The translations under genes and the position numbers were made by a program. From positions 1,305-65,304 of the forward strand of contig JAZBOG010000020.1 in assembly GCA_036351015.1 (NCBI GenBank): a stretch of 64,000 nt of DNA. Direction: 5' to 3'. This document shows positions 38 to 59,364 of this stretch, piece after piece. The first letter of the stretch is position 1, and every line of letters starts with the position of its first letter. Below the pieces are notes generated by a model, which saw only the letters and a program-made list of their open reading frames with translations, was not told the DNA's origin and made no database searches. This DNA is from Bacteroidales bacterium (GTDB lineage Bacteria > Bacteroidota > Bacteroidia > Bacteroidales > UBA12077).

Positions 38-1351
38 CTATTTACTAAAAAGGGTGGGATTAATAACCAACATCATAAATGCCCAATTGGCTAACTCATC
101 GGCATTCCCTCCTTTTATCACTTCCATGGACTTGCTGGCGAACATCATGGAGTATCCGGCATTAAGGGTAATATCGGGAGTAAATTGATACTTAAAATAA
201 AAATCAATTTCGGTACCCAGATGTTTATCCAATGCTTTTAACCCCGGTCCGGAGTAATTAGGATCTAATACATTGTTGGCCAAAGAGAGATAATGTAGTG
301 TACTCCCAATATTTATCTTTTCGTTAAGAGGATACTGAATATTCAGATAAAGATCGGATAGACCTCCATTCATGGTTTGAGAATAGGTATTGGTAAAATA
401 GTCCATATGGCCGTTAAATTTATGACCTGCACCATACAATTTATTAAATGTATTGATTTCGGTATTTGAAGTATCCAACCCATTGGTTCCGGAATAATAA
501 TCAAACCCTAAATCAATGCCCAGTTTGTTAAAATTCTTATGCCCTTTCACCGAATAAAAATAGGCATCGACCACTTTTCCTGTACTTTCTTTTCCATGCT
601 GATAATAGAAATTACCCGACAGGCTTAATTGTAGTGAAGGCATATCGTAATAAACATTAGGCCCGAAAGTATTACGTCCGTATATTGTATGATCCGTATT
701 TGCTTTCTGGTTTCCATCGAGAACATCAATAAAAGAAATTGTTAATTGGTCATTAAATTTCTTTGAAAACCACACATAAGTAAGCGTTTTATAAAAATCC
801 AGGGGATAATAGCTTTCAAAGTTCTTTTCTTTGTCATTATTGTAAGCAAATCCAACATGTGATTTAAACGTTTTGCTTTCATATTTCAGTAAAAGTAGAT
901 CATGCGAAGTACTAACATTGTTCCAGTTGGTAACAGAAAGTAAACGCTGATCATCATATTTTAAAATTTGCCGACCTATCTTCAGGTTCAACCGGGAATT
1001 CAATTCCAATTCGGCCCAGGCCTCATTTAAAAAAGTAGATGCCAGATCATTTTTGATGGTCACATCTCCCCAGGTGCGCACATCCTGTAAAGATATTTTA
1101 AAATTTATTTTCTCCATCTTCGACTCAAAAATCAAACGGGATCTTTGAGAGATTACCTGGGCTGGGGAAGAACCGGTTGAAGGTAAGGTCTTATATCCAT
1201 TACGAAACTCATACCGTGGTCGCATCTCTGCTTTAATCGAGAACTGAGATAATACTTCAGTAGTCGATAAGCCAATCATTAATACCAGTAGAATAAACTT
1301 ACTAATCTTGAAACTCATTGCAATAATTATCTGTTTGAAAGAGCTGCTCAC
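38..1351 (-). CDS. Outer-membrane beta-barrel porin, alginate-export-like (putative)
   Basis: 437-aa ORF. Signal-like MSFKISKFILLVLMIGLSTTEVLSQ, so the true start may be Met12 near 1318. Y/F/G/N-rich alternating beta-strand pattern and an RPRYEFRNG motif typical of alginate-export-type barrels. Confidence 0.5.
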   Translation of the reverse strand: MSSSFKQIIIAMSFKISKFILLVLMIGLSTTEVLSQFSIKAEMRPRYEFRNGYKTLPSTGSSPAQVISQRSRLIFESKMEKINFKISLQDVRTWGDVTIKNDLASTFLNEAWAELELNSRLNLKIGRQILKYDDQRLLSVTNWNNVSTSHDLLLLKYESKTFKSHVGFAYNNDKEKNFESYYPLDFYKTLTYVWFSKKFNDQLTISFIDVLDGNQKANTDHTIYGRNTFGPNVYYDMPSLQLSLSGNFYYQHGKESTGKVVDAYFYSVKGHKNFNKLGIDLGFDYYSGTNGLDTSNTEINTFNKLYGAGHKFNGHMDYFTNTYSQTMNGGLSDLYLNIQYPLNEKINIGSTLHYLSLANNVLDPNYSGPGLKALDKHLGTEIDFYFKYQFTPDITLNAGYSMMFASKSMEVIKGGNADELANWAFMMLVINPTLFSK

Positions 1352-1453: not shown

Positions 1454-1984
1454 TTATTTTTCCTTCTTTTTTGTTTTTTTATCCATCGCCGATTTTCCTT
1501 CGGTCGTTTTTTCCTGTAAAGAAACAATCTCGTCCGACGAAAAAACTTTCTCCATATCCAGCAGCATGATAAACTTCTCGTCAACTTTTACCATTCCGTA
1601 AATAAATTCCGACTTATATTTACTGCCAATACTTGGTGGAGGTTGGATCTGGCTATCGTCAATTTCAAGTACTGCCTGAACCGAATCGACTAAAGCACCT
1701 ACCTGGACCATGTCATGATCCAGTTCAACTTCCATCACAACAATACAGGTGTTGTTGGTATATTCGGTGGGAGTCATTCCAAATTTAATCCGGGTATCAA
1801 TAACCGGCAAAACCGTACCCCGTAAATTAATTACTCCTTTCATATACGCGGGAGCCTTAGGAACCTCCGTAATTTTTGTCATCTCGAGGATATTCAGTAC
1901 TTTGCCCACATGGGCTGCAAATTCTTCGTCGCCCAACTTGAATGACAAATAAGAGTTAATCTTTGTTAATTCTTCTTTTTCCAT
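1454..1984 (-). CDS. cheW: Chemotaxis coupling protein CheW
   Basis: 176 aa. Typical CheW core (YLSFKLGDEEFA...VPKAPAYMKGVINLRGTVLPVIDTRIKFG). Lies 6 nt downstream of cheA. Confidence 0.85.
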   Translation of the reverse strand: MEKEELTKINSYLSFKLGDEEFAAHVGKVLNILEMTKITEVPKAPAYMKGVINLRGTVLPVIDTRIKFGMTPTEYTNNTCIVVMEVELDHDMVQVGALVDSVQAVLEIDDSQIQPPPSIGSKYKSEFIYGMVKVDEKFIMLLDMEKVFSSDEIVSLQEKTTEGKSAMDKKTKKKEK

Positions 1985-1990
1985 GATTCT

Positions 1991-4054
1991 TTAATTTTTT
2001 TGTTTTTTTTCTTCTGTAATTTCTTTTGAGAATTGTGCTATGATCTTATTCGGGTCCATTACCAAAGCTACGGTACCATCCCCTAATATAGTAGCTCCGG
2101 AGATAATCTCCTGTTGTTTGTATAATTTGCCCAATGATTTTAATACCGCCTGATATTCACCGACCACATCATCCACAACCAGCCCTATTTTCTGATCCGA
2201 GTAGCTAACCACAATAACCTGTTCAATGGATTGAGTTCCTTCCGGGAAATCAAACTCTTCCCGCAAATAATAGAAAGGAATTTGTTTGCCATCTAAAATG
2301 ATCATATTGTTAAAGGTGTTTACAACCTTTTGATGCTCGGTAGCGTAGATTTTGTCAACGGCATTTAACGGAATGATATAATGATTTTCAGCTATTTTTA
2401 CCAACAAACCATCAATGATGGAAAGTGTAAGTGGGAGTTTTATGGTAAGGGTAGTCCCTACATTAATCTCAGAGTCAATTTCTACCTCACCACGGATCTC
2501 GGCCAGTTTTCTCTTCACAACATCCATGCCCACTCCTCTGCCTGACACATCGGTTATATTCTGGGCGGTCGAAAATCCAGACCGAAAGGTAAGGTCCAGG
2601 ATCTCCTTTTTGGATAATACAGCATCCTTACTGATTAATCCTTTTTCTATCGCCTTCGCTCTTATTTTTGCAGGATCAATCCCAGCACCATCATCACTAA
2701 TCTGAATAATTACATTGGCTCCTGAATAAAAGGCTTTTAACAGGATTTTTCCCTGGGCCGGTTTTTTTAATTTCTTTCGTTGTTCTGCAGATTCTATTCC
2801 ATGATCAATACTGTTTCTAAGAATATGTAACAGCGGATCGGTAAGACTTTCAATAATTGTTTTATCCAGTTCTGTATCTACTCCTTCGGCACTAAAAGCA
2901 ATATCTTTATTTTGATCTTTGGACAAATCTCTGACCAAACGTTGAAACCGGGTAAGCATGGTCTCAATAGGAACTAACACAATGTCAAAGGCATTGTCGC
3001 GTAATTGTCTGGAAAGCTTCTGAACATTTTCTGCTATGGTCATCAATTCAGAGTCGCCTGTTTGCTCGGCATATAAACTTAACCGTGCCTGGGTGGTCAC
3101 CAGCTCGCTCACCAGGTTCATCATTCTGTCGAGTTTCCCCGAGGAAACCCTGATGCTTGAAATAGCATTTTCCTTTACAGAAGGTAGTGGACCCGTCTTT
3201 TTTATTTTCTTCTCGATCTCACTTAAATCACTGGATGAGTCTCCCTTTTTATCTTTTATCAACCTTTGAATCTCGGATAATCCAATATCATCTTTTGATG
3301 CTGCAATTTTGGCTAATTCCTGAACGATCGTTTCATGTGTTAAAATATTAAAATCGGCAACCTCGTTTATCTCCAGCTCACACTGATCCTCAACAAAAAT
3401 GAAGACATCGTTAATGTCATTTAGATGATTCTCGGTGGCAAGCAGTATCTCCCAATACGTATAACATTTAGTGACATCCAGGGTATCAATCGCAGGAATT
3501 TTATTCAGATGGGAAAATACTTTACAATCCCCTAACGAATGCAACTCATCTAAAAGGAATAAGGGGTTAGTGCCATCATTGAAGATATCCGGATCAGGAG
3601 CAAAATAAATATAATACGTTTTCAAACGGGATTCGGTTGACTTTTCTTTTGGCCCGGAGATTCCTATATCCTCTCCCCTGTTCTCTTCAATCTTTTTTAT
3701 CTTTACAATCAGATCGTTATGTTGGGCAGTAATTGCCGGTGAGTTTGAATCTTCATTGGACAACAAAACTTTCATATGATCGACCGACTGAAGGGTAATA
3801 TCCAATAAATCCCGGGTCACACTCAGCTTATCCTCCCGTACCAGGTCGTATACATTTTCAAGATGATGCGTAAAATCACTCAACTGCTGAAAGCCAAACA
3901 TGGCCCCCCCTCCTTTAATGGTATGCATAGCCCGAAAAACCCTCTCGACCAACTCCCTGTTGTTCGGTTCGTTTTCGAGAATTAACAGGGCATCCTCCAG
4001 ATCTTTAATATTATCTGTAGCTTCTTCTATAAATTTAGCAGTAAACTTATCCAT
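1991..4054 (-). CDS. cheA: Chemotaxis histidine kinase CheA
   Basis: 687 aa. HPt motif RAMHTIKGGGAMFGF, HATPase boxes (HILRNSIDHG, DDGAGID, GRGVGMDVV) and a C-terminal CheW-like P5 domain. 1-nt overlap with cheY. Confidence 0.9.
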   Translation of the reverse strand: MDKFTAKFIEEATDNIKDLEDALLILENEPNNRELVERVFRAMHTIKGGGAMFGFQQLSDFTHHLENVYDLVREDKLSVTRDLLDITLQSVDHMKVLLSNEDSNSPAITAQHNDLIVKIKKIEENRGEDIGISGPKEKSTESRLKTYYIYFAPDPDIFNDGTNPLFLLDELHSLGDCKVFSHLNKIPAIDTLDVTKCYTYWEILLATENHLNDINDVFIFVEDQCELEINEVADFNILTHETIVQELAKIAASKDDIGLSEIQRLIKDKKGDSSSDLSEIEKKIKKTGPLPSVKENAISSIRVSSGKLDRMMNLVSELVTTQARLSLYAEQTGDSELMTIAENVQKLSRQLRDNAFDIVLVPIETMLTRFQRLVRDLSKDQNKDIAFSAEGVDTELDKTIIESLTDPLLHILRNSIDHGIESAEQRKKLKKPAQGKILLKAFYSGANVIIQISDDGAGIDPAKIRAKAIEKGLISKDAVLSKKEILDLTFRSGFSTAQNITDVSGRGVGMDVVKRKLAEIRGEVEIDSEINVGTTLTIKLPLTLSIIDGLLVKIAENHYIIPLNAVDKIYATEHQKVVNTFNNMIILDGKQIPFYYLREEFDFPEGTQSIEQVIVVSYSDQKIGLVVDDVVGEYQAVLKSLGKLYKQQEIISGATILGDGTVALVMDPNKIIAQFSKEITEEKKQKN

Positions 4055-4419
4055 TAGCGTAGTACTTTTTTAAGTGCGGCAATTAATTTAGCAGGAACAA
4101 ATGGTTTTACAATCCAGCCGGTAGCTCCGGCTTCTTTTGCCTCCATTTTCTTGGCTGCTTGTGATTCGGTAGTTAAAAACAAAATAGGGATTCGTTTATA
4201 ACTATCCATGGCTCTAATATTCTTAATTAGCTCAATACCATTCATCTTAGGCATATGCAAATCAGTAATTACCAGGTCGATTTGCCGTCCATCAAGAAAC
4301 TTCATGGCATCGGTACCATCATCACCAACGAATACATGGTATCCTTCATTTTCGAGGGTAAAGCTTACAACCTCCCGTATACTTTCGGAATCGTCTACGA
4401 TTAAAATATTTTTACTCAT
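4054..4419 (-). CDS. cheY: CheY-like single-domain response regulator
   Basis: 121 aa. Receiver signature DD (IVDDSE), phospho-Asp context VITDLHMPKMNG, LTTES, VKPF. Confidence 0.8.
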   Translation of the reverse strand: MSKNILIVDDSESIREVVSFTLENEGYHVFVGDDGTDAMKFLDGRQIDLVITDLHMPKMNGIELIKNIRAMDSYKRIPILFLTTESQAAKKMEAKEAGATGWIVKPFVPAKLIAALKKVLR

Positions 4420-4437
4420 AATGTTTTATTTTTTCTT

Positions 4438-4743
4438 TTAGGCCTTAAATATTTTACGGATATCAGAATTTTCAAGTAACGCCTGGATTTCATCATTAAA
4501 TTCGGCAGTAAAAACAATCCTCTTTCCTCTCGCTTTAGCACTCTGACTCAATGAATAAAGAAATTGGATAAACGATAAATCCAGGTTGTTCACATTTTTT
4601 AATGTAAAATCAATTTCCTGATTTGCATTAAATGTTTGAATGATTTTATCTTTGATTTCTTCGATAGTATATATTGTTAGATCATGGTCTAATAATATAT
4701 TTACTTTTTTCACTCCTTTGGATTTTGCTTTTTTGATTTGCAT
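4438..4743 (-). CDS. STAS-domain (anti-sigma-factor-antagonist-like) protein
   Basis: 101 aa with SpoIIAA-like size and layout (LDLSFIQFLYSL...GKRIVF). The canonical DSSG phospho-serine motif is not visible; IQFLYS sits in its place. Confidence 0.55.
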   Translation of the reverse strand: MQIKKAKSKGVKKVNILLDHDLTIYTIEEIKDKIIQTFNANQEIDFTLKNVNNLDLSFIQFLYSLSQSAKARGKRIVFTAEFNDEIQALLENSDIRKIFKA

Positions 4744-4766
4744 ATTCTCATAATTTACATTATTCC

Positions 4767-6578
4767 TCAGAAAAATTCAATATCACCATCTTCTTCAAGA
4801 TCTATTTCAATATTCTCTGCTTTGTCCCGGAGAATCTGATCATGGACCTGGTGCTCTGAATGCATGGTGTAATAATCTTTTAACTTTTTTAAATTTTCTT
4901 CTTTAGATAATTCAGAATTCTGATCATCTGTTTTTAATTTGAAATTAATCGTATTTAATTCCGTAATGATCTCTTCAATTACTTTCTCGAAAAATTTATA
5001 ATATTTTATGTCAGCAATTGCTTTTTTAATGATCCCAATAACTTCCCTGCTTACCTGTTGATTGACTTTCAGCTTTTTATCAATGGAGTCTCCGGACTCT
5101 TTGATTTGATTTACAAAGCCATCAAATTGGTTAATATATTCCCGGGTTAATCGGTTCTGATGGTTATGCTCATTAGATTCCTGAAAATTTTTTTTTATTC
5201 GTTTTAATTCATGAAAGATTTTATACACTTTCTGATAGTTATTCTTAATGTCGGAATGTAAATTCTTTACCTGTGCAATATTTTTTTTCGAATTCAAATC
5301 ATCAACCGAAAGCTCCTGTAATCTTTCCAGGGTATTAAAAAACAGCTGGTTAAAATCCTCACTCAGCAGGTCCAATTTACGAAATGACGAATCAATAGTA
5401 TCTATCTTATCTTCCAGGGAATCAATATCCTGGTTAATCGTTTTGTTTTGGATAAATTTCTGGTCAAGAATCTCGTTCGCTGAAGAAAATAAATGAAAAA
5501 TATCATCATAAAGTTTTAATCCATTCTCATCGTATAAAATCTCATTTCCTTTTTCGGAAATGTATTTCATATGATCGCCAATATTTAAAAACTGGTTAAT
5601 AATAATCTCCAGGGCACCCTGGTATTCCTTATTGGCATGAATCAGCTGCGCAGCTTGCAATCCGGCAATATCGCGGATACGAAGAAAACATTTTGCCAGA
5701 TCGTTGAGATGGCTCTCATCTTTATGGGTTTCCTCAAAGGCTTTCAGTTCTTCTATTAAATCACGATGGGTTTGCTGGATATGTTCCATCTTTTGTTGAA
5801 TAATATCCTGATATTGTAATTTTTTAATAATATCATCCACACTAAGTGTAGTCTTTTCAGAGCTTTCAATTATTCCGGGAATCAACCTCTTGTTTCTCTT
5901 ATACTTATCTTTTAAGGCATTCAACACGTGCTCAATTTTTGATAACCATAAATCAAAATTGAATTCTTTTTGTTGTTTTATATCCTGCAAATTCTTTATT
6001 GAAAGTTTGGATACTTTTTGAAGATGATTAATATTTTTAACAATAAGATCAGAATATTTTTTGATTTCATCGATTTTTTGACTAGCCATTTGATTCTGTT
6101 GTTCAATCACCACCTTATCAGTCCCTTTAATGTGTGAAATGTTGAGGTTTAAATTAGCAAGCAAATACTTTAAACTCATTAAATTCTGGCAATAATTTTT
6201 CATAGGAAAAAAAATATGCCGTAAATGATTGGAAAGTTTATCAAACGAATCAATGACAATTTCTAATTTATAATCAAAAAGCTCAATCCGGGCTTTGAGG
6301 CTATGGTACAATTGTTCAACCTGGCAATAAAACTCCTGGCTGTTATTATCATTAAAGTGATTAAGGACAGTATGGATATTTTCGGCAATGATTTTTGATT
6401 TTGTGTATATGATCTTAAATTCACTATTTAATTTTAAAAAATCATCCGCCGAACATTCATGCAACGAAATCAGGTTTTTATCAATACTGGAAAACAGGGT
6501 AGAAATTTCTTCTACAGAAAATGTGTTGAGTAAAGCTTTTAACTGTATTTTATTTTCGAGTTCTTTATCGTAATCCAT
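4767..6578 (-). CDS. 603-aa coiled-coil protein of unknown function in the Che-like operon
   Basis: Long uninterrupted ORF, 12 nt downstream of a receiver gene and 23 nt upstream of the STAS gene. K/E/N/I/L-rich heptad-like sequence with no TM segment. No MCP signature (NLLALNAAIEAARAGE) seen. Acidic tail ends in DIEFF. Confidence 0.6.
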   Translation of the reverse strand: MDYDKELENKIQLKALLNTFSVEEISTLFSSIDKNLISLHECSADDFLKLNSEFKIIYTKSKIIAENIHTVLNHFNDNNSQEFYCQVEQLYHSLKARIELFDYKLEIVIDSFDKLSNHLRHIFFPMKNYCQNLMSLKYLLANLNLNISHIKGTDKVVIEQQNQMASQKIDEIKKYSDLIVKNINHLQKVSKLSIKNLQDIKQQKEFNFDLWLSKIEHVLNALKDKYKRNKRLIPGIIESSEKTTLSVDDIIKKLQYQDIIQQKMEHIQQTHRDLIEELKAFEETHKDESHLNDLAKCFLRIRDIAGLQAAQLIHANKEYQGALEIIINQFLNIGDHMKYISEKGNEILYDENGLKLYDDIFHLFSSANEILDQKFIQNKTINQDIDSLEDKIDTIDSSFRKLDLLSEDFNQLFFNTLERLQELSVDDLNSKKNIAQVKNLHSDIKNNYQKVYKIFHELKRIKKNFQESNEHNHQNRLTREYINQFDGFVNQIKESGDSIDKKLKVNQQVSREVIGIIKKAIADIKYYKFFEKVIEEIITELNTINFKLKTDDQNSELSKEENLKKLKDYYTMHSEHQVHDQILRDKAENIEIDLEEDGDIEFF

Positions 6579-6590
6579 GGAGCAAAATCT

Positions 6591-6968
6591 TTATTTATGG
6601 GTAGCTAATACCTGGTATACTTTGGCTAAAAAGTCTGGAATATTAATCGGTTTCTCAATAACATCAGCAGCCCCGAGGTCCTTTGCTATAATAATATTTT
6701 CTTTATTAGCAAATGCTGTTACTATAATGGTGGGAATACAATTCAATTCGTTCGTTACTTTTAACTTCCGCAATAAATCAAATCCATTTTCATTAGGCAT
6801 TAACAGGTCTAATAAAATTAAATCGGGAGTATATGATTTTAACTTCTTCTCTGCTTCCTTTACATTAAAAGCTGTTTCAACATGAAACCCATCATCTTCC
6901 AAAATTGCTTCAAGCAGAACCAAATTGGTTTCAGAGTCATCAACAATTAAAATATTATGTTTTGCCAT
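6591..6968 (-). CDS. Single-domain response regulator (receiver only)
   Basis: 125 aa with IVDDSE, LLDLLMPNENG, VTA, EKP receiver motifs. First gene of the Che-like operon. Confidence 0.85.
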   Translation of the reverse strand: MAKHNILIVDDSETNLVLLEAILEDDGFHVETAFNVKEAEKKLKSYTPDLILLDLLMPNENGFDLLRKLKVTNELNCIPTIIVTAFANKENIIIAKDLGAADVIEKPINIPDFLAKVYQVLATHK

Positions 6969-7197
6969 GATTATATTATTGGGTGATAAGATTTTTTATT
7001 AACTGTAAACCGGCACATAAAAAGAATATAAACGAATATCATTTTATGGAGTAAAATTACAACCAAGAGGGTTAATGCTACAACAAAATTGCTATGACAT
7101 TCATTACTAAACATGATGATTTACATCACCAAAAAAAGTAGGGTTAATCATTTTTTTTAAAAAGAATTTAATATTTTTACCAAAACGACGGAGGTTT

Positions 7198-7884
7198 ATG
7201 AGCAAAGACAAAAAAGGGGATTTATTCGATTTATTATTTCCCGATAAGGATATCATATCAAAAGCTGAGATTGATCGAATCAGAGCAGGTTGTGAAATCG
7301 TTCAATTCCAGAAAAAGGATATCATTTTTAAACAAAACACCCTCACCTCGCATATCATGTTTATTAAATCGGGATTGGTAAAAATTTTTAAGCAAGGGAA
7401 AAATAATAAATCAATCATTCTCAAAATTGCCACACCAGGTAACTTTTTGGGGTTAATTTCAATTTTTGGGGAATCAACTTTTCAATATTCGGCCTCAGCC
7501 ATTGAAGATGCAGAAATTTTATTTATTGATTTCAATACTTTTCAATCAATCTTAACCAACAATGGAAAATATACGACCTCGTTGTTAAAAAAATTAAGTA
7601 AGGAAAATCTTTATGTGATCGACCGATTAATTGCTCAGTACCACAAACAACTCCCAGGAAAAATTGCCGATCTAATCCTCTATTTTTCCGAGGAGATCTA
7701 TCATTCTGAAAAATTTGAGTTACCCCTTACCCGGAACGAACTGGCTGAATTTGCCGGGACAACCAAAGAAAGTCTTATTAGAACTTTAACTGAGTTTAAA
7801 AACGATAAAATTATCGAGCTGGAAGGGAAAAAAGTGAATATAAGGAGTATGGATATTATTAAAACACTAAGCAGAATAGGGTAA
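7198..7884 (+). CDS. Crp/Fnr-family transcriptional regulator
   Basis: 228 aa. N-terminal cNMP-binding beta-roll (FKQNTLTSHIMFIKSGLVKIF...PGNFLGL) and C-terminal HTH (LTRNELAEFAGTTKESLIRTLTEF). Confidence 0.85.
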   Translation: MSKDKKGDLFDLLFPDKDIISKAEIDRIRAGCEIVQFQKKDIIFKQNTLTSHIMFIKSGLVKIFKQGKNNKSIILKIATPGNFLGLISIFGESTFQYSASAIEDAEILFIDFNTFQSILTNNGKYTTSLLKKLSKENLYVIDRLIAQYHKQLPGKIADLILYFSEEIYHSEKFELPLTRNELAEFAGTTKESLIRTLTEFKNDKIIELEGKKVNIRSMDIIKTLSRIG

Positions 7885-7886
7885 TA

Positions 7887-8261
7887 ATGACTAAGTATAA
7901 CATTCTAATTGTTGATGATATTTTTTTAAACAGATTATTATTAAAAGAATTTTTAAAAAATATCGCAGAGAAACTTATTGAGGCAGAAAACGGAAAAGAT
8001 GCCATTGAAATCATTAAAAACAATCCGGTCGACGTTGTCTTAATGGACATTGAGATGCCTGTCATGAATGGGCTAGAAACCACAAAGTTTATTCGAAATA
8101 ATTTTCCCGAGCCCAGTAACAGGATCCCTATAATTGCGCTAACAGCTCATAATCCGGATGACTTTTTTAATGATTTTAACAGTGCTGGTTTTGATGAGTT
8201 ACTTACCAAACCCTATTCCTTTGAAAAGGTGTTAGGGGCCATAAAAAAAGCAAGATCGTAA
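7887..8261 (+). CDS. Single-domain response regulator
   Basis: 124 aa with IVDD, VLMDIEMPVMNG, LTA, TKP motifs. Starts 2 nt after the Crp-family gene. Confidence 0.85.
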   Translation: MTKYNILIVDDIFLNRLLLKEFLKNIAEKLIEAENGKDAIEIIKNNPVDVVLMDIEMPVMNGLETTKFIRNNFPEPSNRIPIIALTAHNPDDFFNDFNSAGFDELLTKPYSFEKVLGAIKKARS

Positions 8262-13424: not shown

Positions 13425-13880
13425 CTAATTTTCTCTTAACACAAACTCGTCATATTCAATCTCAAACCTTAATTTATGTTTCGACTCTTCTTCGGCCAGG
13501 GAAAGGAAAACATCCTTCATTTCATCATTAACAGCCCTTTTGCTCAGTTCAAGATATAATTTATAGGCTGCTTTCTCCTTTTTCATGGCTAAAACCAGTG
13601 CCTCACTATAAGTCATGTCGGCTGCCGGTTTAACACTTACCATGTAATCGCTGATCTTAAGGTCTTTAATTTGATGGGATTCAGCCTGATAAGCACCCTC
13701 TGCCTTAATTTTAGTCAACCGGGCTTTATGCCCAATTTCTTCCTGTGCAAACTGGACAAAAACATTACGCATATCCTCTGTTTTTGCTATTTCTGCCAGG
13801 TCGTTATAAAAATCAACGGCTTCCTGTTCCGATTTTATGGCAAAATCAAAAATATCATCTATGGTTTTAAATTCTTTCAT
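13425..13880 (-). CDS. Rubrerythrin-like diiron four-helix-bundle protein lacking a rubredoxin domain (erythrin)
   Basis: 151 aa with two EExxH diiron motifs (QEEIGH, EEESKH) in a duplicated helix-pair layout. Lies 18 nt downstream of the 1234-aa oxidoreductase. Confidence 0.7.
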   Translation of the reverse strand: MKEFKTIDDIFDFAIKSEQEAVDFYNDLAEIAKTEDMRNVFVQFAQEEIGHKARLTKIKAEGAYQAESHQIKDLKISDYMVSVKPAADMTYSEALVLAMKKEKAAYKLYLELSKRAVNDEMKDVFLSLAEEESKHKLRFEIEYDEFVLREN

Positions 13881-13898
13881 AACACTGCTGTTTAATAG

Positions 13899-16800
13899 TT
13901 AAAAAGCTTGATCAAAATCTTGGTCAAATTTCTTGACCAGATAATCACATCCGTATTTAAAAAGTTTATTCATATTATCTTTTATTGTATAGCTAAAACT
14001 ATATTTCTCGGATTGATTGGTTGAGGGTAATAGTTCAAAAATTTCCTTCCGGATATCATCGATGGTTTTATCTATTTCTCCACCGGTAAATTTAGCCATT
14101 AAATGGATCAACTGAACATAATTTTCTTGTTCCACCTTCCCTTTAAATTGTTTTTCGAATTGCTGAATATGTTTTTGTGTATTGGTAAAACTACCTGAGG
14201 TTTCAACAGGGAAAGTAGCCGGTAGAATTAAGTCAGCCTGTTTAGCTGTTTCGGTCATAAAATAATCCTGCACCATGATAAATTCGGCATCGGCAAACCA
14301 TTTCTGGATTTTAGCTTTGTCCCTGGCACAGCCTATCGGATCTTCACCGAAGATATAGAACTTTTTAATTAATCCCTCATCGAGTAAATCCTTGGTGCAT
14401 TTCTCGTGGATTTCAGGTAAACTCTTAATCTTCCAGTTTTTCGACAATTTCTTAGCAAATTTCTCATCTTTTAAATCTGTATAACCAACCCCGTTTTTGG
14501 AAGAAATTCCCATATCAAATAATCCCTGTGCATTATTTTTCTCCTTAAGAGAGATAAGTCCACTGGATGTTTTGCCTAGTTTGCCCGTGATCATGGCTAG
14601 GTTAAACAACTCTTTGCTAACATTAGCCGATATATATTTCTCTGAAAAAACAATAATTCCATTCATCTCCCGGTTATAATTCTCGGCAAATTCTTCCAGG
14701 TGTTCCTGGCAACATATACCCGAAGCAGATACTAATTTTTGATAGTCTTCGTTCAACAATTCTTTCTTATATTGTTCAAATCCTATACAACGGTCCTTGA
14801 TAAACAATGAATTTTGTAATCCCCTACTAACCAGGTAGTAATTAACAGCCTTGATAAAATGATAATAGGATTTAATTTTCATAATTTTATCAACCTTATG
14901 CTCCAAAGCACTTTCTTTTCTGTCGGTAATTAGTTCTACAGGTACTTTATCGGTCTCCCGGGTATTATTTACCATAAACCCAACAACAGCATTATCCCTG
15001 TTTATTTCAGAGCCAAGCAGGTATATTTTACCTGCCTTTTTCAGTTGATCGAAAGGAACATTTGCTTTAAAATTAGATTCATAGCCTCTACCCTGACCTA
15101 AATAATAGAAACTGGTTACATTGTTGGTTTTGGCATTCGCCCGAGCCAGCTTTTGAATCAAATACATCTCTTCATTACTTAATCTAGCGCCTGCAAAGAA
15201 TCCATTCTCATCAGCATCTGCCCCTTTAATTTCGTCGGCAATCACATCAAAAGCTTTTTCCCAGCTGATGGTCTCAAAATTATCATCTACCTTAAGCAAG
15301 GGCTGGGTAATTCTTTGCAAATCATTCATAGCAGTATATCCAAATTTAGGATAACGGCAGATATTACCATCTTTATTTACCAGACCTTCTTTCCCGGTAG
15401 CTTTCCAAACAAATTCCGATTTATGATGATACTTTACTTCACATCCTACCGAACAATAATTACAAAGGGTATTCACAGAATCCAGTTTTACAGGTCCGGG
15501 TTTAAAGGAAGTATTTTCTGTAATGGCTCCGGTTGGACAGGTAGAAATGCACAGTCCACAGGACTCACACCGTGTATCCACCAACGATCCTCCCATACTT
15601 GGCGCAACATAAGTATCAAACCCCCGATTAACGAGACCTAATGCATTTGCACCTACTACTTCGTCACATATTCTGACACAACGGGCACATAAAATACATT
15701 TATTGTTGTCAATTTCAATAAAAGGGTGTGAAAAGTCAATAGAATATTCCTGAAATTCACCACTAAACCGCTTTTGTTCAGCATGATATTGTGAACTATA
15801 CTTTTTCAGATCGCAGGTAAAAAACTCGTTACAACCACATTCCAAACAACGATTAGTTTCATGCTGGGCAACATTCTCGTCAGCATAGCCTAATTCCACT
15901 TCTTCGAAATTATTCCGTCTGTCGGCAGGTAAAACAGGCATCTCTTCACGCAACTGCTGTTGATATCTGCCTAAAAAATCATCTGGGGAAAGTTCTTTAA
16001 AATTATCTTTTCTGCTTATAAATTCTTCAGCTTCAGGCTCTATGGGCAACCCTGACAAATACTGATGGCAACTTCTACTGGCAATCTTAGCCTGAGCAAT
16101 AGCTTCAATGATAGTTGCAGGTCCGGTTACGCCATCACCGGCAGCAAAAACAGAGGCAATTCCGGTTTGCAGAGTCTGTTCATTTGCAGCAATATCTCCC
16201 CAACGGTTCACTTCCAGTTTGCCTTTGTCCGAAAATTTATTGATATCATCTAAAAAATTAACGGTTGTTTTTTGGCCTATCGCTGCCAGCACGTAGTCCA
16301 ATTCAATTTCAAACTCAGAGCCTTCAATGGGAATTGGCCTCCTGCGCCCAGAGGCATCGGGCTCGCCCAGCTCCATTTTAACACAGGTCATGGTTTTTAA
16401 TTTCCCGTTTTTATCTTTATTAATCTTTACCGGGTTGGTTAAAAACAAATATTCTACCCCTTCAACTTTTGATTCATGGATTTCAATGGGGTTCGCCGGC
16501 ATCTCTTTTTCGGTTCTACGGTAAATAATGTATACTTTTTCTGCGCCACAACGAACAGAAGTCCGGCAGCAGTCCATGGCGGTATTTCCACCCCCCACAA
16601 CAGCAACCGTTTTTCCCGAAAAATCATATTTCTGACCGGTCATTTCCATGTTCCGCAAAAAGTCGATTCCTGAAAACACATTTTCAGCGTCATCACCCTC
16701 ACATCCAATTAATGTTCCCCGTTGTGAACCTATGGTTAAAATTACGGAATCGTATTTCTTTTTAAGCTCCCGGTAGCTTAAATTATCCCCCAATTTTTTC

Positions 16801-17603
16801 TGATAAAAAATATTGACTCCCAGTTCAGTAACTGCTGCTACTTCCTGGTCCAGTATATCATTGGGAAGACGGTATTCAGGGATTCCATAGCGTAACCAAC
16901 CACCCGGATTCGGACTGGCTTCGTAAATATCACACTGATGTCCCTTTTGTTGCAGGAAGTAGGCTGATGATAATCCCCCGGGACCGGCTCCAATGATGGC
17001 TATTTTTTTACCGGTAGAGGTTTCAATATCCGGAACATACCGCGCTTCGGAAAGTAAATCCTTATCCGCGGCAAACCGCTTCAAATAATCAATACCAACG
17101 CCACTACCCTCATCCAGGAAGTTTCTTCGACAGGCCAGTTCACAGGGGCGAACGCACACACGCCCACAAATTGCCGGTAATGGATTGGTTTGTTTTATAA
17201 GTCCTATAGCTTCACTATATAAACCTTTTTCTATAAACGAAATATATCCCTGTACATCTACACCAGCCGGACAGGTTTGCTTACAAGGAGCTTCACAATC
17301 GGCATAGTGATTACTTACCAATAGATCTAATGCTGTTTTACGAGCTTTTTGAACCTTCTCATTTTCTGTTTCTATACGCATTCCCTCTTGTATCTTCGTA
17401 GAGCATGAAGGTTGCATTCCTTTCATCCCTTCCACTTCGACAACACAAACAAAACACGATGAAAAAGGCTGAAGCCTGGGATCATTACAAAGGGTTGGGA
17501 TTTTAATTTCATGTCGGTTGGCTAATTCGAGAATTGTTTCGCCGGGATTGCCTTTAACATTTTTCCCGTTTAGGATGATATTGAGTTGATTACTTTTTTT
17601 CAT
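13899..17603 (-). CDS. Multidomain Fe-S flavoprotein: NuoG/HydA-type [2Fe-2S] + inserted GltD/NfnB-like FAD/NAD(P)H module + NuoG-type Fe-S clusters + cofactor-less molybdopterin-oxidoreductase-like domain
   Basis: 1234 aa. C39/C50/C53/C67 form the 2Fe-2S site. CEAPCKQTCP and CGRVCVRPCELAC are the GltD N-terminal clusters. GAGPGG and VVGGGNTAMD are dinucleotide folds. HETNRCLECGCNEFFTCDLK is a His-Cys3 cluster like NuoG N5. CILCARCVRIC and CESCGLCISTCP are 2x[4Fe-4S]. CNYCSVGC is the molybdopterin-type 4Fe-4S. SNEEMYLIQKLAR and ADLILPATFPVETSGSFTN are molybdopterin-domain motifs. Confidence 0.85.
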   Translation of the reverse strand: MKKSNQLNIILNGKNVKGNPGETILELANRHEIKIPTLCNDPRLQPFSSCFVCVVEVEGMKGMQPSCSTKIQEGMRIETENEKVQKARKTALDLLVSNHYADCEAPCKQTCPAGVDVQGYISFIEKGLYSEAIGLIKQTNPLPAICGRVCVRPCELACRRNFLDEGSGVGIDYLKRFAADKDLLSEARYVPDIETSTGKKIAIIGAGPGGLSSAYFLQQKGHQCDIYEASPNPGGWLRYGIPEYRLPNDILDQEVAAVTELGVNIFYQKKLGDNLSYRELKKKYDSVILTIGSQRGTLIGCEGDDAENVFSGIDFLRNMEMTGQKYDFSGKTVAVVGGGNTAMDCCRTSVRCGAEKVYIIYRRTEKEMPANPIEIHESKVEGVEYLFLTNPVKINKDKNGKLKTMTCVKMELGEPDASGRRRPIPIEGSEFEIELDYVLAAIGQKTTVNFLDDINKFSDKGKLEVNRWGDIAANEQTLQTGIASVFAAGDGVTGPATIIEAIAQAKIASRSCHQYLSGLPIEPEAEEFISRKDNFKELSPDDFLGRYQQQLREEMPVLPADRRNNFEEVELGYADENVAQHETNRCLECGCNEFFTCDLKKYSSQYHAEQKRFSGEFQEYSIDFSHPFIEIDNNKCILCARCVRICDEVVGANALGLVNRGFDTYVAPSMGGSLVDTRCESCGLCISTCPTGAITENTSFKPGPVKLDSVNTLCNYCSVGCEVKYHHKSEFVWKATGKEGLVNKDGNICRYPKFGYTAMNDLQRITQPLLKVDDNFETISWEKAFDVIADEIKGADADENGFFAGARLSNEEMYLIQKLARANAKTNNVTSFYYLGQGRGYESNFKANVPFDQLKKAGKIYLLGSEINRDNAVVGFMVNNTRETDKVPVELITDRKESALEHKVDKIMKIKSYYHFIKAVNYYLVSRGLQNSLFIKDRCIGFEQYKKELLNEDYQKLVSASGICCQEHLEEFAENYNREMNGIIVFSEKYISANVSKELFNLAMITGKLGKTSSGLISLKEKNNAQGLFDMGISSKNGVGYTDLKDEKFAKKLSKNWKIKSLPEIHEKCTKDLLDEGLIKKFYIFGEDPIGCARDKAKIQKWFADAEFIMVQDYFMTETAKQADLILPATFPVETSGSFTNTQKHIQQFEKQFKGKVEQENYVQLIHLMAKFTGGEIDKTIDDIRKEIFELLPSTNQSEKYSFSYTIKDNMNKLFKYGCDYLVKKFDQDFDQAF

Positions 17604-17668
17604 TGGTCATTGGGTTAATAATTGATTATAACTTTTTACTGATTAACATCCATTTAAAAAGTCTGACT

Positions 17669-19447
17669 TTAGGATAAAACAATGGCATCAAATTTACATT
17701 TCGAATAACACATTCCGCATTTTATACAAGCCTCCTGCCGGATAAAATGTACTTCTTTTCTTGCTCCATCAATTGCATCTGACGGGCAATTTTTGGCACA
17801 TACAGTACAACCGGTACATTTTTCAGGATCAACGGTGTACGTAAGTAGTTTTTTACAATTTAATGCAGGGCATTTTTTATCCTTGATATGGGCTTCATAC
17901 TCATGGCGGAAATACTTAATGGTAGTTAATACCGGATTTGGCGCTGTTTGTCCCAAACCACACAATGAATTGTCTTTAATTTGATAAGCAAGTTCTTCCA
18001 GTTTTTCGATGTCTCCTTCCTCACCTTCACCTTCGGTGATGCGGGTAAGTATTTCGAGCATTCGTTTGGTTCCGATGCGGCAGAATGTACATTTTCCACA
18101 CGATTCTTTCCGGGTAAAATCAAGAAAGAAACGAGCCATATCGACCATACAGGTGGTTTCATCCATCACCACCATCCCCCCGGATCCCATAATTGCGCCG
18201 GTAGCATTCACCGAATCATAATCAACAATGGTATCGGCAAGGTACTCAGGGATACAGCCTCCGGAAGGGCCACCCAGTTGAACCGCTTTAAATTTCTTGT
18301 CCCCGGTAATGCCGCCTCCTAATTTAAAAATAATATCATGGATTGAAATTCCCATAGGGACCTCAACAGCTCCTCCGTGTTTAATTTTCCCGGTAAGTGC
18401 AAAAACTTTGGTTCCTTTACTTTTTTCTGTACCATACCGGGAAAAGGATTGGGCCCCGTTTAAAATGATGTAAGGGATATTGGCAAAAGTTTCCACATTA
18501 TTAATGTTTGAAGGTTTACCCCATAATCCTGCTTCGGCAGGAAAAGGAGGTCGTTTCCTGGGCATCCCGCGTTCCCCTTCCACAGAGGCAATCAATGCTG
18601 TTTCTTCACCACAGACAAAGGCTCCTGCACCTTCTTTCACATACAGATCAAAATGAAAACCTTTCATTCCCAGAATATTTTTACCAAGATAGCCTTTCTC
18701 CCTTGCCTGCCCAAGAGCTATATTAAGCCTTTTAATCGCCAGGGGATATTCAGCCCGGCAATAGATTACACCTTCTGTGGCACCAATGGCATACCCCCCA
18801 ATAATTAATCCTTCAATTACAGCATGCGGATCACCCTCCAACAATGAACGGTCCATAAAAGCACCGGGATCTCCTTCGTCGGCATTACAGATGATATATT
18901 TTTCGTCGGATTGGTTTTTATAGGCAAACCTCCATTTTAACCCTGTGGGGAAACCACCTCCTCCACGGCCCCGGATTCCTGAATCTAAAACCGTTTGAAT
19001 TACCTGTTCCTGATCGATTTTTTCTGCAACTATTTTTTTAATTCCTTTATATCCATCATTCTTTTCGTATTCATCGATACTTTCAGGATTGATTATTCCA
19101 CAATGACGAAGGGCTATTTTTACCTGTCCATCCCAAAAGGTGTCGTCCGGGGATTTAAACAGATCGCTTTTAACCACGTAATCCTTAATCGGTTCGCTCT
19201 GTTTGAGATGTTTATCAAAAATCTCAACCGCTTTCTCTTCATTAATGTCTCCATATAAATAGGACCCGGTATCATCAACCACCTCCACTAATGGTTCCCG
19301 GTAACACATGCCAATACAACCGGTTTTTTTCAATTCAAAATCAAGTTGATCTGCATGCTTTAAAGCGATGAGTTTATCGTAAACTTTTTGAGCACCTGCA
19401 GAAATTCCACAGCTTGCCAATCCAACCAAAACTTTTGTTTTTTCCAT
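17669..19447 (-). CDS. NuoF/HydB-type NADH-binding FMN Fe-S subunit
   Basis: 592 aa. N-terminal thioredoxin-like 2Fe-2S domain, GRGGGGFPTGLKW (FMN), CNADEGDPGAF, ESCGKCTFCRIG (N3-type cluster) and a C-terminal 2x[4Fe-4S] ferredoxin (CTGCTVCAKNCP, CIKCGMCYSKC). Confidence 0.9.
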   Translation of the reverse strand: MEKTKVLVGLASCGISAGAQKVYDKLIALKHADQLDFELKKTGCIGMCYREPLVEVVDDTGSYLYGDINEEKAVEIFDKHLKQSEPIKDYVVKSDLFKSPDDTFWDGQVKIALRHCGIINPESIDEYEKNDGYKGIKKIVAEKIDQEQVIQTVLDSGIRGRGGGGFPTGLKWRFAYKNQSDEKYIICNADEGDPGAFMDRSLLEGDPHAVIEGLIIGGYAIGATEGVIYCRAEYPLAIKRLNIALGQAREKGYLGKNILGMKGFHFDLYVKEGAGAFVCGEETALIASVEGERGMPRKRPPFPAEAGLWGKPSNINNVETFANIPYIILNGAQSFSRYGTEKSKGTKVFALTGKIKHGGAVEVPMGISIHDIIFKLGGGITGDKKFKAVQLGGPSGGCIPEYLADTIVDYDSVNATGAIMGSGGMVVMDETTCMVDMARFFLDFTRKESCGKCTFCRIGTKRMLEILTRITEGEGEEGDIEKLEELAYQIKDNSLCGLGQTAPNPVLTTIKYFRHEYEAHIKDKKCPALNCKKLLTYTVDPEKCTGCTVCAKNCPSDAIDGARKEVHFIRQEACIKCGMCYSKCKFDAIVLS

Positions 19448-19478
19448 AAAAAAATATTTTAATTATCCCAATGAGGGA

Positions 19479-19997
19479 TTAATTACTTTCCTTTATTTTT
19501 ATCTCTTTCACAATTTTTACTGCCTGATTTCCGGTTAGTTTTCCAAAAGTCTCATCACCAATCATCATTACCGGAGCAAGAGAACAACAACCAAGGCAGG
19601 CAACAGATTCCAGCGTAAAAAGGTTATCCTCAGTAGTTTCGCCATCGTTAACCCCCAAAGCATCCTCCAATGCTTCGCTTATGGCTGTAGCATTCTGAAC
19701 ATGACAGGCTGTTCCGTGGCAAACCTTAATAATATGCTTTCCTACCGGATTTAACCTGAACTGGGTATAGAATGTTGCCACCCCAAACATTTCACTCAGT
19801 TCTAATCCTGTAACTTCAGCTATTTTATAAAAAGCCTCCCGGGGTAGATAACCATAAATATTCTGCGTACCTTGTAATATGGGTATTAAACTCCCTTTCT
19901 TTTGCTTATATTTTTCTAATAGAGGATCAATTAGTGAAAGATCAACAGAGGGCCCTTCAGTACCCTCAATTTTAGGCAAGATTCTTTGAACACGCAT
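19479..19997 (-). CDS. NuoE/HydC-type [2Fe-2S] subunit
   Basis: 172 aa. VCHGTACHV and CLGCCSLAP cysteine motifs of the 24-kDa/NuoE family. First gene of the operon. Confidence 0.9.
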   Translation of the reverse strand: MRVQRILPKIEGTEGPSVDLSLIDPLLEKYKQKKGSLIPILQGTQNIYGYLPREAFYKIAEVTGLELSEMFGVATFYTQFRLNPVGKHIIKVCHGTACHVQNATAISEALEDALGVNDGETTEDNLFTLESVACLGCCSLAPVMMIGDETFGKLTGNQAVKIVKEIKIKESN

Positions 19998-28671: not shown

Positions 28672-29040
28672 TTATAAAAATTCAAAGATTGACTCTTCAA
28701 TTTCTTGCATATTAAAAGGTTTTTGGAAATAACTTTGAATAAGGTTATTATTCAGGGCCTCAGCAATCTCTTCAGTTATTTCAAAGCCCGTTAAAATAAA
28801 ATACTTAATGTCAGGATAATCCGATTTGGCTTTCTTAATAAATTCAATTCCATTCATCCCGGGCATCTTCATATCGCTGATCACTACGTTTACCACATGG
28901 TGTTTTTCTGCCAGTACTTTTAATCCTTCGTTACCACTTAGTGCAGTAATCACATTAAATTTCTTACTAAAATTAATTTCAAATAATTTTAGGTTCATAG
29001 GCTCATCATCGACATAAAGAATGGTGGTTTTATTTTCCAT
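28672..29040 (-). CDS. Single-domain response regulator
   Basis: 122 aa with VDDEP, VISDMKMPGMNG, LTG, QKPF motifs. Overlaps the upstream kinase gene by 11 nt. Confidence 0.85.
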   Translation of the reverse strand: MENKTTILYVDDEPMNLKLFEINFSKKFNVITALSGNEGLKVLAEKHHVVNVVISDMKMPGMNGIEFIKKAKSDYPDIKYFILTGFEITEEIAEALNNNLIQSYFQKPFNMQEIEESIFEFL

Positions 29041-31720
29041 GGACGTCTGATTTTAAAGGTAAAGTAATAATTACCGTCGTTCCTCGATTCGGTTTTGACT
29101 TAAATTCAATTGTTCCAGCATGTTCCTGAACAATATTATGGGTAATAGATAATCCCAGGCCTGTTCCTTTGCCAGGTGGTTTGGTGGTAAAAAAAGGATC
29201 TAAGATCTTATCCAAATGTATATCACGGATCCCTTTTCCTGTATCCTGGATTTGCAGCTTATAGTTGTTTGCACTGATAGAGGATATAATGGTTATGGAG
29301 CCCTTTTTTTCGATGGCATGAATTGCATTGGTTAAAATATTTAAAATAACCTGGTGCAACTTTCCTTCATTCCCTAATAAAGTAAAATTCTTGTCGGTAT
29401 AACTCTTTTCAATCTCTATTCTATTTTTCAATTGATTTCTAAGCATTACCAGGCAATTATCAATTATTGAATGAATATCACAGGGAAGCATTTTTGAATC
29501 ATCCTTACGGTTATAATGGTTAAGACTTTTTACTATTTCAGCGGCTCTGTAAATCCCTTCATTGATTCCCTGTAAAAGAGGGCTTAATTCTTGTAAATGA
29601 TCCTTAAAGTTTTCATTTAAGAAGGACTCAATACCAAATACCCCACCTTTGATAAAGTTGAGGGGGTTATTTATTTCATGGGCAATTCCTGAGGCAAGAA
29701 CACCCAAAGAAGCCATCTTTTCAGAATGTATTAATTGTTTTTGGGTGTTTTGCAGATTCAATAATACGGCTTCCAGTTCCTGGCGTTGATTAAGCAACTC
29801 TTCGTTAGTAGACGTTAACTCTTCATTTGCAGTGGCAAGCTCCTCGGTACGCTCCTGCACCAGAAACTCCAGGTGTTTATGATATTTCTCGAGCTCCTGC
29901 TCTGCTTTTTTTGCTTCTGTTATATCAATCGTAACTCCAATAAATCCTACCGGTTTTTTGTCATGATAAATAACACTGGTAAAAATATTTGCCGGAAAAG
30001 TGGTTCCGTCTTTTCTAAGGGCCACATACTCATCCCCGGGAGAAATATCACCTTTCAACCGCTGCATCAATCGTTTCTTTGCATAATCCCGTTGTTCGGG
30101 GATAATCAGGTCAAGTACATTGATCCCACGAACCAGATCTTCGGGGCTGTATCCGTGAATTTTGAACCCCACCTTGTTGGTATAGGTACAGATTCCCTTT
30201 AAATCAATTTCCCAGATGGCTACCGGCAGGATTTCGGCCATTTCCCGATACTTCTCCTCACTTTCAGCCAGTGCCTTCATCACTTTTTCATGTTCGGTAA
30301 TATCCACCACAAAACCTTCATAATATTTTATGTTACCCTGAGCATCTTTTACTACCCGGGCATTCTCGCGAATAATAATCTTCTCACCATTTTTTCTCAA
30401 CCACTCCGACTTATAATCTTTAAGATATCCCTGTTTCTCAATAGTATTTATAAATTCTTTGCGCGACTTTTTTAGAAAGTATTTGTTTTCGTTGAGATTC
30501 CTTTTCGACAGGCTTTCCAGGTCATCATACCCTAAAATATTTAATAAAGCGGGATTAGCCTGCAAAATCCTTCCATCAGGGGTTGTCTGGTAAATCCCTA
30601 CCTGTGCATCCTCAAATATCCCGCGAAAACGTGATTCACTCTCTGACAGGGCTTCCTTAGCCTTTTTACGTTGGGTAATATCAATTAATGAATACTGTAA
30701 AAAAAACTGATCCTCGTATTCAAAAGCCAGCAAATGAATTTCTGCATCCCAGGAGCTCCCGTCGGATCGCTTAAACTGCCATTCTACGGTCATTGTTCCA
30801 TACTCATTGACCCTTTCAATTATTTCTTCAGCCTTCACCCACGATAACTTTCCATCCCCCTGACAGGCCGGAGAAACATCGGCAGGCTTTTTGCCTAACA
30901 AATCATTCCTCGAATCATACCCAAAACTCTGGATCGCAGCATCGTTTAAATCAACAAATTCCCGGCGATCAATATCCATAATAATCATAGGAATGCTGGA
31001 GCTTTCAAAAACCTTTTTCCGGATGGCCTTACTTTTCCTTAACTCCTGCTCAACCTGTATTTTATCCTCATAATCCCGTTCTACCTTCTTTAACGTTTGA
31101 TGATTGATCCGAACAATCTGGTAGACAACTATTCCTGAAAAAATTAATGCAATTGCGGTATCAGCAATATAATCTACTACAATATTCGCCGACAATCCAT
31201 ATTCGTGCTGATAGATACTAATAAAAAGAAGAAGAATAGCGAGGTTAACAGCCGTAAAAAATATTATTGTTGTCTTATATTTACTGATGAACAGAGGAAT
31301 ACTATTTATGATTGCAAGTATTAGGACTACCGTATCGAGTTTAGCAACAACATGTTCACCCCTGCTAAAAAACATGATATACCAGACGCAAAAATTGGCC
31401 GAAATTAAGAAGAGATGAGTCGCAATATTATATTTTCCTTTGAACAACAAGAAAAGCGTAACAGAAAAAATCAACAGTAAAATAATGATGGGTAAAAAAA
31501 TCTGGAGATCTAACTTGTTGAAACTTCCTGTCAGTTGTACATAACTTGAACTTACCAATAGAAAAGTCAATGCAAAAATAGCTGCAATACATATACTATA
31601 AAATACACGAACCCTTAACTTTAAAGAAAAACTCGAATTCTTATAAAATTCTAGGATTCTGGGGAGTTTAATATGAAAAGATTTTTCGAGATCATTATTT
31701 CTATGGTGTAAATCTCCCAT
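29030..31720 (-). CDS. Membrane-bound multi-PAS sensor histidine kinase
   Basis: 896 aa. About 6-7 N-terminal TM segments and three PAS-like modules. H-box [13 protein letters not shown]-box [11 protein letters not shown]-boxes DTGKGI and GKGTGLGLS. Confidence 0.9.
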
Positions 31721-48920: not shown

Positions 48921-48964
48921 AACTAGTTTTGTTTAATGATTATTTATTATTTTATTTTTGTCGA

Positions 48965-59309: not shown

Positions 59310-59315
59310 ACTTTT

Positions 59316-59338: not shown

Positions 59339-59364
59339 TTCTGACTAATGTGCCAATTTATATT

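Follow-up and report, generated by a model that had tools for sequence, protein, structure and literature searches.

Positions 1454-6968 of the window, which is the whole 64-kb stretch of Bacteroidales DNA analysed here, hold a chemotaxis-type (Che) operon. We conclude with good confidence that uncultured Bacteroidales share a complete, conserved chemosensory cluster and that this operon is its promoter-proximal half. Comparison with related genomes points to the full order REC-CC603-STAS-CheY-CheA-CheW-(porin and/or MCP)-CheR-pHK-CheD-CheB, with a Crp and REC gene pair transcribed divergently from its head. Here REC is a stand-alone receiver, CC603 a 603-amino-acid (aa) protein, MCP a methyl-accepting chemotaxis protein and pHK a HisKA/HATPase_c protein. 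This strictly ordered Che cluster is common to at least 250 species-level genomes of Bacteroidales, which stem from marine sediments, from microbial mats and also from ruminant guts. We found nothing specific in the literature on Bacteroidota Che systems.

In such a cluster, CheA would be controlled via CheW by transmembrane MCPs that have HAMP domains and sensors of the Cache or CZB type; their genes lie after cheW or at other places in the genome. Adaptation would be provided by CheR, CheB and CheD, and the DDEYE[KN]F C-termini of the MCPs resemble the pentapeptide that tethers CheR and CheB. Phosphorylated CheA (CheA~P) would be expected to phosphorylate CheY and probably also RR1, the receiver encoded by the first gene. 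Candidate outputs are gliding motility, which would act via the constrained CheY, and transcription, which would act via the divergent Crp and REC pair.

The operon and its immediate surroundings consist of the following features:

6591-6968, minus strand: RR1, stand-alone receiver, 125 aa, operon gene 1 (Pfam Response_reg, 1.3e-26)
4767-6578, minus strand: CC603, 603-aa all-helical orphan (no match in Pfam or NCBIfam)
4438-4743, minus strand: single-domain STAS protein, 101 aa (Pfam STAS_2, 2.9e-6; STAS, 6.3e-5)
4054-4419, minus strand: CheY-type receiver, 121 aa (Pfam Response_reg, 1.9e-30)
1991-4054, minus strand: CheA, 687 aa, with Hpt, H-kinase_dim, HATPase_c and CheW-like domains (Pfam)
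1454-1984, minus strand: CheW, 176 aa (Pfam CheW, 4e-39)
38-1351, minus strand: outer-membrane porin of the Alginate_exp family (Pfam Alginate_exp, 4.9e-21)
1-37, no strand: spacer past the porin gene, at the left window edge
6969-7197, no strand: intergenic region between the che operon and the divergent Crp/REC pair (from the open reading frame coordinates)
7198-7884, plus strand: Crp/Fnr-family regulator (Pfam cNMP_binding, 7.6e-19; HTH_Crp_2, 2.3e-13)
7887-8261, plus strand: R3, stand-alone receiver, 124 aa (Pfam Response_reg, 1.9e-24)

Coordinates, gaps and Pfam domains agree that the operon has six co-directional, tightly packed genes in the order REC, orphan, STAS, CheY, CheA and CheW, as a preliminary description of this DNA had it. 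From RR1 to CheW, the spacings in the list of open reading frames (ORFs) are 12, 23, 18, -1 and 6 nucleotides (nt), with the cheY stop and the cheA start overlapping by 1 nt. RR1 has all of the residues DD, D54, T84 and K106 in place. CheA is confirmed as a member of its family by NCBIfam CheA models (5e-128 and 1.5e-114), and neither a P2 domain (Pfam) nor a receiver domain was found in it.

Every ORF of at least 120 aa in the 64 kb was scanned with Pfam, and no MCPsignal, CheR, CheB, CheD, CheC/X/Z or flagellar domain was found. The preliminary description, which stated that the 64 kb contain no MCP, CheR, CheB, phosphatase or flagellar gene, is therefore accurate for the window. It also placed the DNA in a Bacteroidota-type genome, and the window does hold Bacteroidota markers: a type IX secretion system (T9SS) sorting domain, DUF1573 and DUF3276. 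To our knowledge, known Bacteroidia are without flagella.

Conserved gene order in related Bacteroidales

Across relatives, gene order is conserved well beyond chance, a check which the preliminary description had proposed. The order REC-CC603-STAS-CheY-CheA-CheW is kept in ten genome loci with CC603 identity down to 42%, and these ten also keep the divergent Crp/Fnr regulator and stand-alone receiver. Using the 304-aa pHK protein as bait gave 79 further loci. Survey counts refer to 45 non-redundant loci that carry a full CC603 gene: a receiver lies immediately upstream of CC603 in 39/42 loci, CheY-CheA-CheW lie downstream (with STAS as an optional member of the counted order) in 42/44, and the divergent Crp and REC pair is kept in 35/37. 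All 40 loci with both CheW and CheR have CheR together with pHK. An MCP gene sits between cheW and cheR in 11 of these 40, and there is none at that place in the other 29.

Relatives (loci numbered with L) also carry the downstream half. On the 4.6-Mb Bacteroidales chromosome L011, CheW is followed by hypothetical-MCP(dCache-HAMP-MCPsignal)-CheR-304-aa HATPase_c protein-CheD-REC-CheW-MCP(CZB-HAMP-MCPsignal). By tblastn, L003, L004, L006, L007 and L008 have CheW-MCP-CheR-pHK(-CheD), L002 has CheW-MCP-porin-MCP, and L009 has CC-STAS-CheY-CheY-CheA-CheW-MCP-HPt. In 59 loci, L027, L021 and L023 among them, a near-full-length CheB comes after CheD; for example, the ORF past CheD in L024 is a textbook CheB with a receiver and a methylesterase domain containing GASTGG. 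The MCPs of the cluster carry methylation-type pairs (SAEEVSS, SMEEMAS).

Conservation differs between the operon's products. In relatives where CC603 is 67-73%, STAS 64-72% and CheA 81-84% identical to the window (tblastn), CheY is 95-98% identical; compared with CC603, STAS and CheA, the CheY receiver appears to be under unusually strong constraint.

The Crp/Fnr gene and R3, which starts 2 nt past it, point away from the che operon. Together they might serve as an output of the pathway at the level of transcription or as a regulator of the cluster, and the region between (6969-7197) is presumably a promoter region shared by both transcription units. A scan for sigma-70 promoters and terminators gave background-level results, and the sigma-70 model is not applicable to Bacteroidota promoters.

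The left edge of the window

The preliminary description read the operon as a self-contained MCP-less pathway with an alternative cellular function, having an unconventional input, no adaptation enzymes, and two receivers plus STAS partner switching. The content of the 64 kb (no MCP, CheR or CheB) and the 29 related clusters without an MCP between cheW and cheR are consistent with that idea. So is a gene difference at the porin: L002 has a 696-aa Cache_3-Cache_2/HAMP MCP gene between cheW and the porin gene (L002:13125-15307), and the window lineage and L027 are without it. However, the window looks MCP-less because its clade has a porin gene after cheW and because the window ends 37 nt past that gene, i.e., cheW is followed, after 102 nt (1352-1453), by the Alginate_exp porin gene and then by the edge.

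What follows the porin in relatives argues against an MCP-less pathway. L027 is a close relative (CC603 74%, CheA 85% and CheY 98% identical to the window) which has the same CheW-porin junction and, past the equivalent porin gene, MCP-CheR-pHK-CheD-CheB. L021 and L023, which are further contigs of the metagenome-assembled genomes (MAGs) containing L001 and L002, carry MCP(3' part)-CheR-pHK-CheD-CheB. More generally, CheR, CheD and CheB are in the cluster of every relative with enough DNA.

The CheW/porin junction is not an assembly artefact, because it is also present in independent contigs of two other metagenomes (sequencing runs X1 and X4, whose contigs are short and of low coverage). The X4 contig overhangs window position 1 with TTAAATTTCATTTTT, which on the minus strand is ATGAAATTTAA and encodes MKF(N/K). 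At the corresponding place, MCPs start with MKFNYKDLN (the second MCP of L002) and MKLKYKDFN (L027), so the overhang would encode an MCP N-terminus, against an MCP-less pathway. The next gene is therefore predicted to be an orthologue of the L002/L027 MCP, on the minus strand, with its start about 5 nt beyond window position 1. An Alginate_exp-family porin gene recurs beside cluster MCP genes in different clades (e.g., L013:16106-17317).

Clusters without an MCP between cheW and cheR do not imply a cell without receptors: in six listed cases, MAGs with such clusters have MCP genes on other contigs, which makes a conventional input probable. That MCP, CheR and CheB are absent thus holds for the 64-kb window and is not confirmed as a property of the system, given the downstream genes in relatives. 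Strong synteny, not direct sequence, places cheR and cheB just outside the window, a location which the preliminary description itself had named as one that would speak against it. Its proposal of an MCP-less system without adaptation enzymes is not supported, as relatives carry MCP(Cache or CZB)-CheR-CheD-CheB downstream, the closest ones right after the porin. Likewise, the claim of a receptor-less Che core fails because the cluster itself is a conventional chemosensory system. On these comparisons, the MCP-less pathway appears largely refuted, and we regard it as highly improbable.

CC603, the STAS protein and pHK

Judged by database sequences, CC603 is a conserved protein family restricted to Bacteroidales and without annotation. 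At least 304 relatives are in the database; every one is annotated as "hypothetical", and almost all of them come from Bacteroidales MAGs. There are 528 family representatives at E<=1e-30; the best 150 of these are approximately 575-625 aa long and match over their full length (evident fragments aside), so the family has one architecture. Among GTDB species representatives there are 250 CC603 loci, and the best 80 of these are all from Bacteroidales/Bacteroidota MAGs, rumen and faecal ones included.

An AlphaFold2 (AF2) model of CC603 consists of long helices and a disordered tail, with a predicted local distance difference test score (pLDDT) of 77. Conservation down to 21% identity is seen in two central blocks, which lie on either side of a helical hairpin with a variable tip, and in the C-terminal region. 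The first block comprises L254, Q255, Y256, D258, I259, I260, Q262, K263 and H266, and it contains the invariant motif LQYxDIIxQKxxH with D258-x3-Q262. Neither D258 nor Q262 varies in 33 sequences, and in a set of 42 that reaches down to 21% identity their conservation is still at least 95%. The second block (Q308, A310, L312, A315, N316, E318, Y319 and Q320) lies on the second helix, and further conserved residues lie in the C-terminal region (Y526, Y527 and F530; Y570, T571, M572, E575 and H579). The acidic tail always ends with [ILV]E[FL]F, including the conserved E601-x-F603, and often has an internal [VI][DE]LF[DG] copy; in the window, it ends IEFF-COOH (4767-4790). The family alignment contains no conserved Glu/Gln ([EQ][EQ]) methylation-type pairs, unlike the cluster MCPs. 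When the AF2 model was compared with the PDB by Foldseek, the only matches were coiled coils of the SMC/Rad50 type (E>1e-3).

For its function, we favour an accessory role in signal termination or as a scaffold, because of the conserved D-x3-Q, the [ILV]E[FL]F tail and the lack of methylation-type pairs. D258-x3-Q262 would form a catalytic pair on a helix, as in CheZ and CheT, and the acidic tail would dock a receiver or CheR. DXXXQ is the motif of the CheZ and CheT phosphatases, CheT being newly described (PMC12654446), and the YQDIIxQ context in CC603 resembles the CheZ active site FQDLTGQ. A role in signal termination or scaffolding via this pair and the docking tail is possible, and we put it forward tentatively.

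Homology to CheZ was considered and rejected. None of Pfam, hhalign and a core-only profile search of the PDB gave a significant match, so that the motif resemblance alone was kept. The CheZ side of hhalign was E. coli CheZ alone or 100 CheZ sequences (an alignment of low diversity), and both runs gave a single alignment, which placed LQYQD on the active-site DFQD with P about 0.3. CheZ was absent among the matches shown in PDB profile searches with CC603.

Alternatively, CC603 might be a strongly diverged cytoplasmic chemoreceptor in the position of icpA (the head gene of the Sinorhizobium operon described below), acting as an array member and as a substrate or tether of CheR, CheB and CheD. 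Like icpA, its gene heads the operon before STAS-CheY-CheA. The modelled protein is made of long antiparallel helices, its most conserved segments flank a hairpin, and its flexible acidic tail ends in E-x-F-COOH like the DDEYE[KN]F of the cluster MCPs. The top PDB profile match is a Thermotoga MCP, but designed coiled coils surround this match in the list, and it maps to the variable part of CC603. The hairpin tip also differs, since it is variable in CC603 whereas the tip is the most conserved part of an MCP, and the methylation pairs present in the cluster MCPs are absent. With no MCPsignal match in Pfam and an hhalign probability of 0.1 against the cluster MCP signalling domains, CC603 was rejected as a demonstrable MCP homologue, in keeping with its earlier description as an orphan which is not a recognisable MCP. 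We consider the diverged-chemoreceptor explanation distinctly unlikely.

CC603 could instead be a scaffold on the output side, which binds phosphorylated CheY or RR1 and couples it to gliding/T9SS or cell polarity, and is not a phosphatase. The tight pairing with a stand-alone receiver gene (39/42 loci), the confinement to Bacteroidales, the absence of flagellar genes from the window scans, the extreme constraint on CheY and the long coiled coil, which is typical of scaffolds, all fit this. However, no locus examined links a gliding or T9SS gene to the cluster, and there is no direct evidence for any CC603 partner. An output scaffold of this kind therefore seems unlikely, though less so than a chemoreceptor, and signal termination or scaffolding through D258-x3-Q262 and the tail is the role that we carry forward.

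The STAS gene is a regular member of the cluster. An ORF of 101-130 aa fills the slot between CC603 and CheY in 48/50 loci. The Pfam STAS_2/STAS match is marginal for the window's single 101-aa sequence; STAS_2 matches 21/22 diverse orthologues, and the best matches of the family profile in the PDB are RsbV (6m36_B, E 2e-6), TM1442 and SpoIIAA. A STAS gene is thus embedded in the Che operon, as the preliminary description had said, but its reading as a sign of partner switching is not borne out. In 44 orthologues the motif is D-[L/M/V]-[S/T/G], i.e., Leu, Met or Val replaces the phospho-Ser after the conserved Asp, and a HMMER alignment to RsbV places the window family's Leu on the phosphorylated Ser of RsbV. 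The window Pfam scans and the genes identified in related clusters yielded neither an RsbW-type kinase nor a PP2C, and pHK is of the HisKA/HATPase_c type (3.7e-24), not HATPase_c_2. A phosphorylatable partner-switching anti-anti-sigma factor was therefore rejected, as the phospho-Ser is missing and these scans and clusters gave no kinase or phosphatase partner, and this is also a point against the MCP-less pathway.

An analogue is CheS of the alpha-proteobacteria Sinorhizobium meliloti and Agrobacterium fabrum, a single-domain STAS protein whose gene immediately precedes cheY1-cheA; it binds CheA and speeds up the turnover of CheY1~P (PMC12654446). By fold and gene position, the window's STAS protein is CheS-like, and by this analogy it would most likely bind CheA and adjust how CheY is bound and dephosphorylated, which is the role of CheS in Sinorhizobium. 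A CheS-like STAS gene would thus be present outside the alpha-proteobacteria.

A further component, pHK, lies beyond the window in the relatives' clusters, with the following examples:

L011:18962-19876 (relative): pHK
L024:10001-10918 (relative): pHK

This 295-308-aa HisKA/HATPase_c protein is always encoded between cheR and cheD (about 80 loci). Its H-box, SHFISNITNEIINPF, has Asn in place of the phospho-acceptor His in essentially all loci, and its HATPase_c domain is intact. From these residues, pHK might act as a pseudo-kinase or as a dedicated phosphatase. The protein terminates in ...NE[LT]FF[DE]...E[ETV]F-COOH. MCP and pHK C-termini were compared in L002, L009, L011, L024 and others, and acidic tails of the form E-x-F-COOH occur on three unrelated cluster proteins: the MCPs (DDEYE[KN]F), CC603 ([ILV]E[FL]F) and pHK (E[ETV]F). 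Because the three share such tails, a common docking partner is suggested, perhaps with one site that serves MCP, CC603 and pHK tails alike, for which the CheR/CheB pentapeptide site would be a precedent.

A broader proposal can be built on these components. CC603 would found a Bacteroidales-specific family of receiver phosphatases or scaffolds, convergent with or very remotely related to CheZ/CheT, which would work through D258-x3-Q262 and dock by the [ILV]E[FL]F-COOH tail. Together with the CheS-like STAS protein, the upstream receiver as a sink and pHK, it would form a signal-termination module steering gliding or Crp-dependent transcription. If true, this module would let a complete MCP/CheA system act in a lineage not known for flagella. 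As a whole, the proposal is doubtful.

Several points weigh against our reading of the cluster and its components. No output component has been identified. Gene content varies, as the loss of an MCP between cheW and the porin relative to L002 demonstrates. The continuation into MCP, CheR and CheB would follow from synteny and from an 11-nt overhang in a strain that is approximately 93% identical. CC603 resembles CheZ without statistical significance (hhalign P=0.3; no Pfam CheZ match), and its tail falls outside the aromatic pentapeptide consensus. Finally, the likeness of the STAS protein to CheS is one of fold and position. With these points taken into account, we retain the conserved, complete chemosensory cluster as the probable explanation. 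It contains two conserved components without annotation, the 603-aa D-x3-Q protein and the His-to-Asn kinase-like protein, and it gives a concrete form to two questions: which process such a pathway steers in Bacteroidales that glide or do not move, and by what means its signal is switched off.

Other loci and known chemosensory systems

The window contains several other loci, all on the minus strand. At 28672-31720, an 896-aa PAS-PAS histidine kinase gene is followed by one for a 122-aa stand-alone receiver, with an 11-nt overlap. A redox cluster at 13425-19997 encodes a thioredoxin-like 2Fe-2S protein (NuoE-like), a NuoF-like subunit with flavin mononucleotide (FMN) and Fe-S, a 1234-aa Fer2/Fer4/Pyr_redox/Molybdopterin fusion and rubrerythrin; this cluster is also beside the che region in L011. 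The remaining loci are a pair of ornithine carbamoyltransferase and amino-acid (carbamate-type) kinase genes (47919-49927), a sulfate-activation set with a CysN-like GTPase, a PAPS_reduct/CysD-like protein and APS kinase (58035-61454), and a protease of the Peptidase_C10 (streptopain-like) type that carries an Inhibitor_I69 propeptide and, at its C-terminus, a T9SS sorting domain (61594-63576).

Among known systems, the che operon of S. meliloti/A. fabrum, with the order icpA-cheS-cheY1-cheA-cheW-cheR-cheB-cheY2-cheD-cheT (PMC12654446), resembles the Bacteroidales cluster in several ways. Both have a single-domain STAS gene immediately upstream of cheY-cheA-cheW, a gene for a non-transmembrane helical protein at the operon head, several stand-alone CheY-type receivers, and CheR, CheB and CheD within the cluster. 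The DXXXQ accessory protein is CheT there and possibly CC603 here. There are also differences: the Bacteroidales cluster is in another phylum with no flagellar genes seen, its head gene does not encode a recognisable MCP, it has an extra His-less histidine-kinase-like gene between cheR and cheD, and it has the divergent Crp and REC pair.

The STAS protein shares its fold with SpoIIAA and RsbV, which together with TM1442 are its best matches among solved structures. It differs from them in having Leu, Met or Val where they have the phospho-Ser, and in having no gene for an RsbW-type kinase, PP2C or sigma factor nearby.

CC603 can be likened to CheZ and CheT by motif alone, as it has no significant sequence or profile similarity to them. 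In each, an invariant Asp-x3-Gln lies on a long helix beside a helical hairpin, and with its neighbouring residues it reads [FY]QD[LI]xxQ. CheZ also has a flexible acidic C-terminal tail with a hydrophobic end and a terminal Phe like that of CC603 (E. coli CheZ ends DDLLDSLGF). However, E. coli CheZ has 214 aa, so CC603 is approximately three times longer, with extra conserved N- and C-terminal regions.

The Frz system of Myxococcus xanthus, which controls gliding, is likewise a Che-type pathway with several receiver proteins and coiled-coil accessories, and the Bacteroidales pathway resembles it in belonging to a lineage in which no flagella are known. Gliding is one candidate output of the Bacteroidales pathway. 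In Frz, the receptor FrzCD is a cytoplasmic MCP and CheA is fused to a REC domain. Its gene content and order differ from those of the Bacteroidales cluster.

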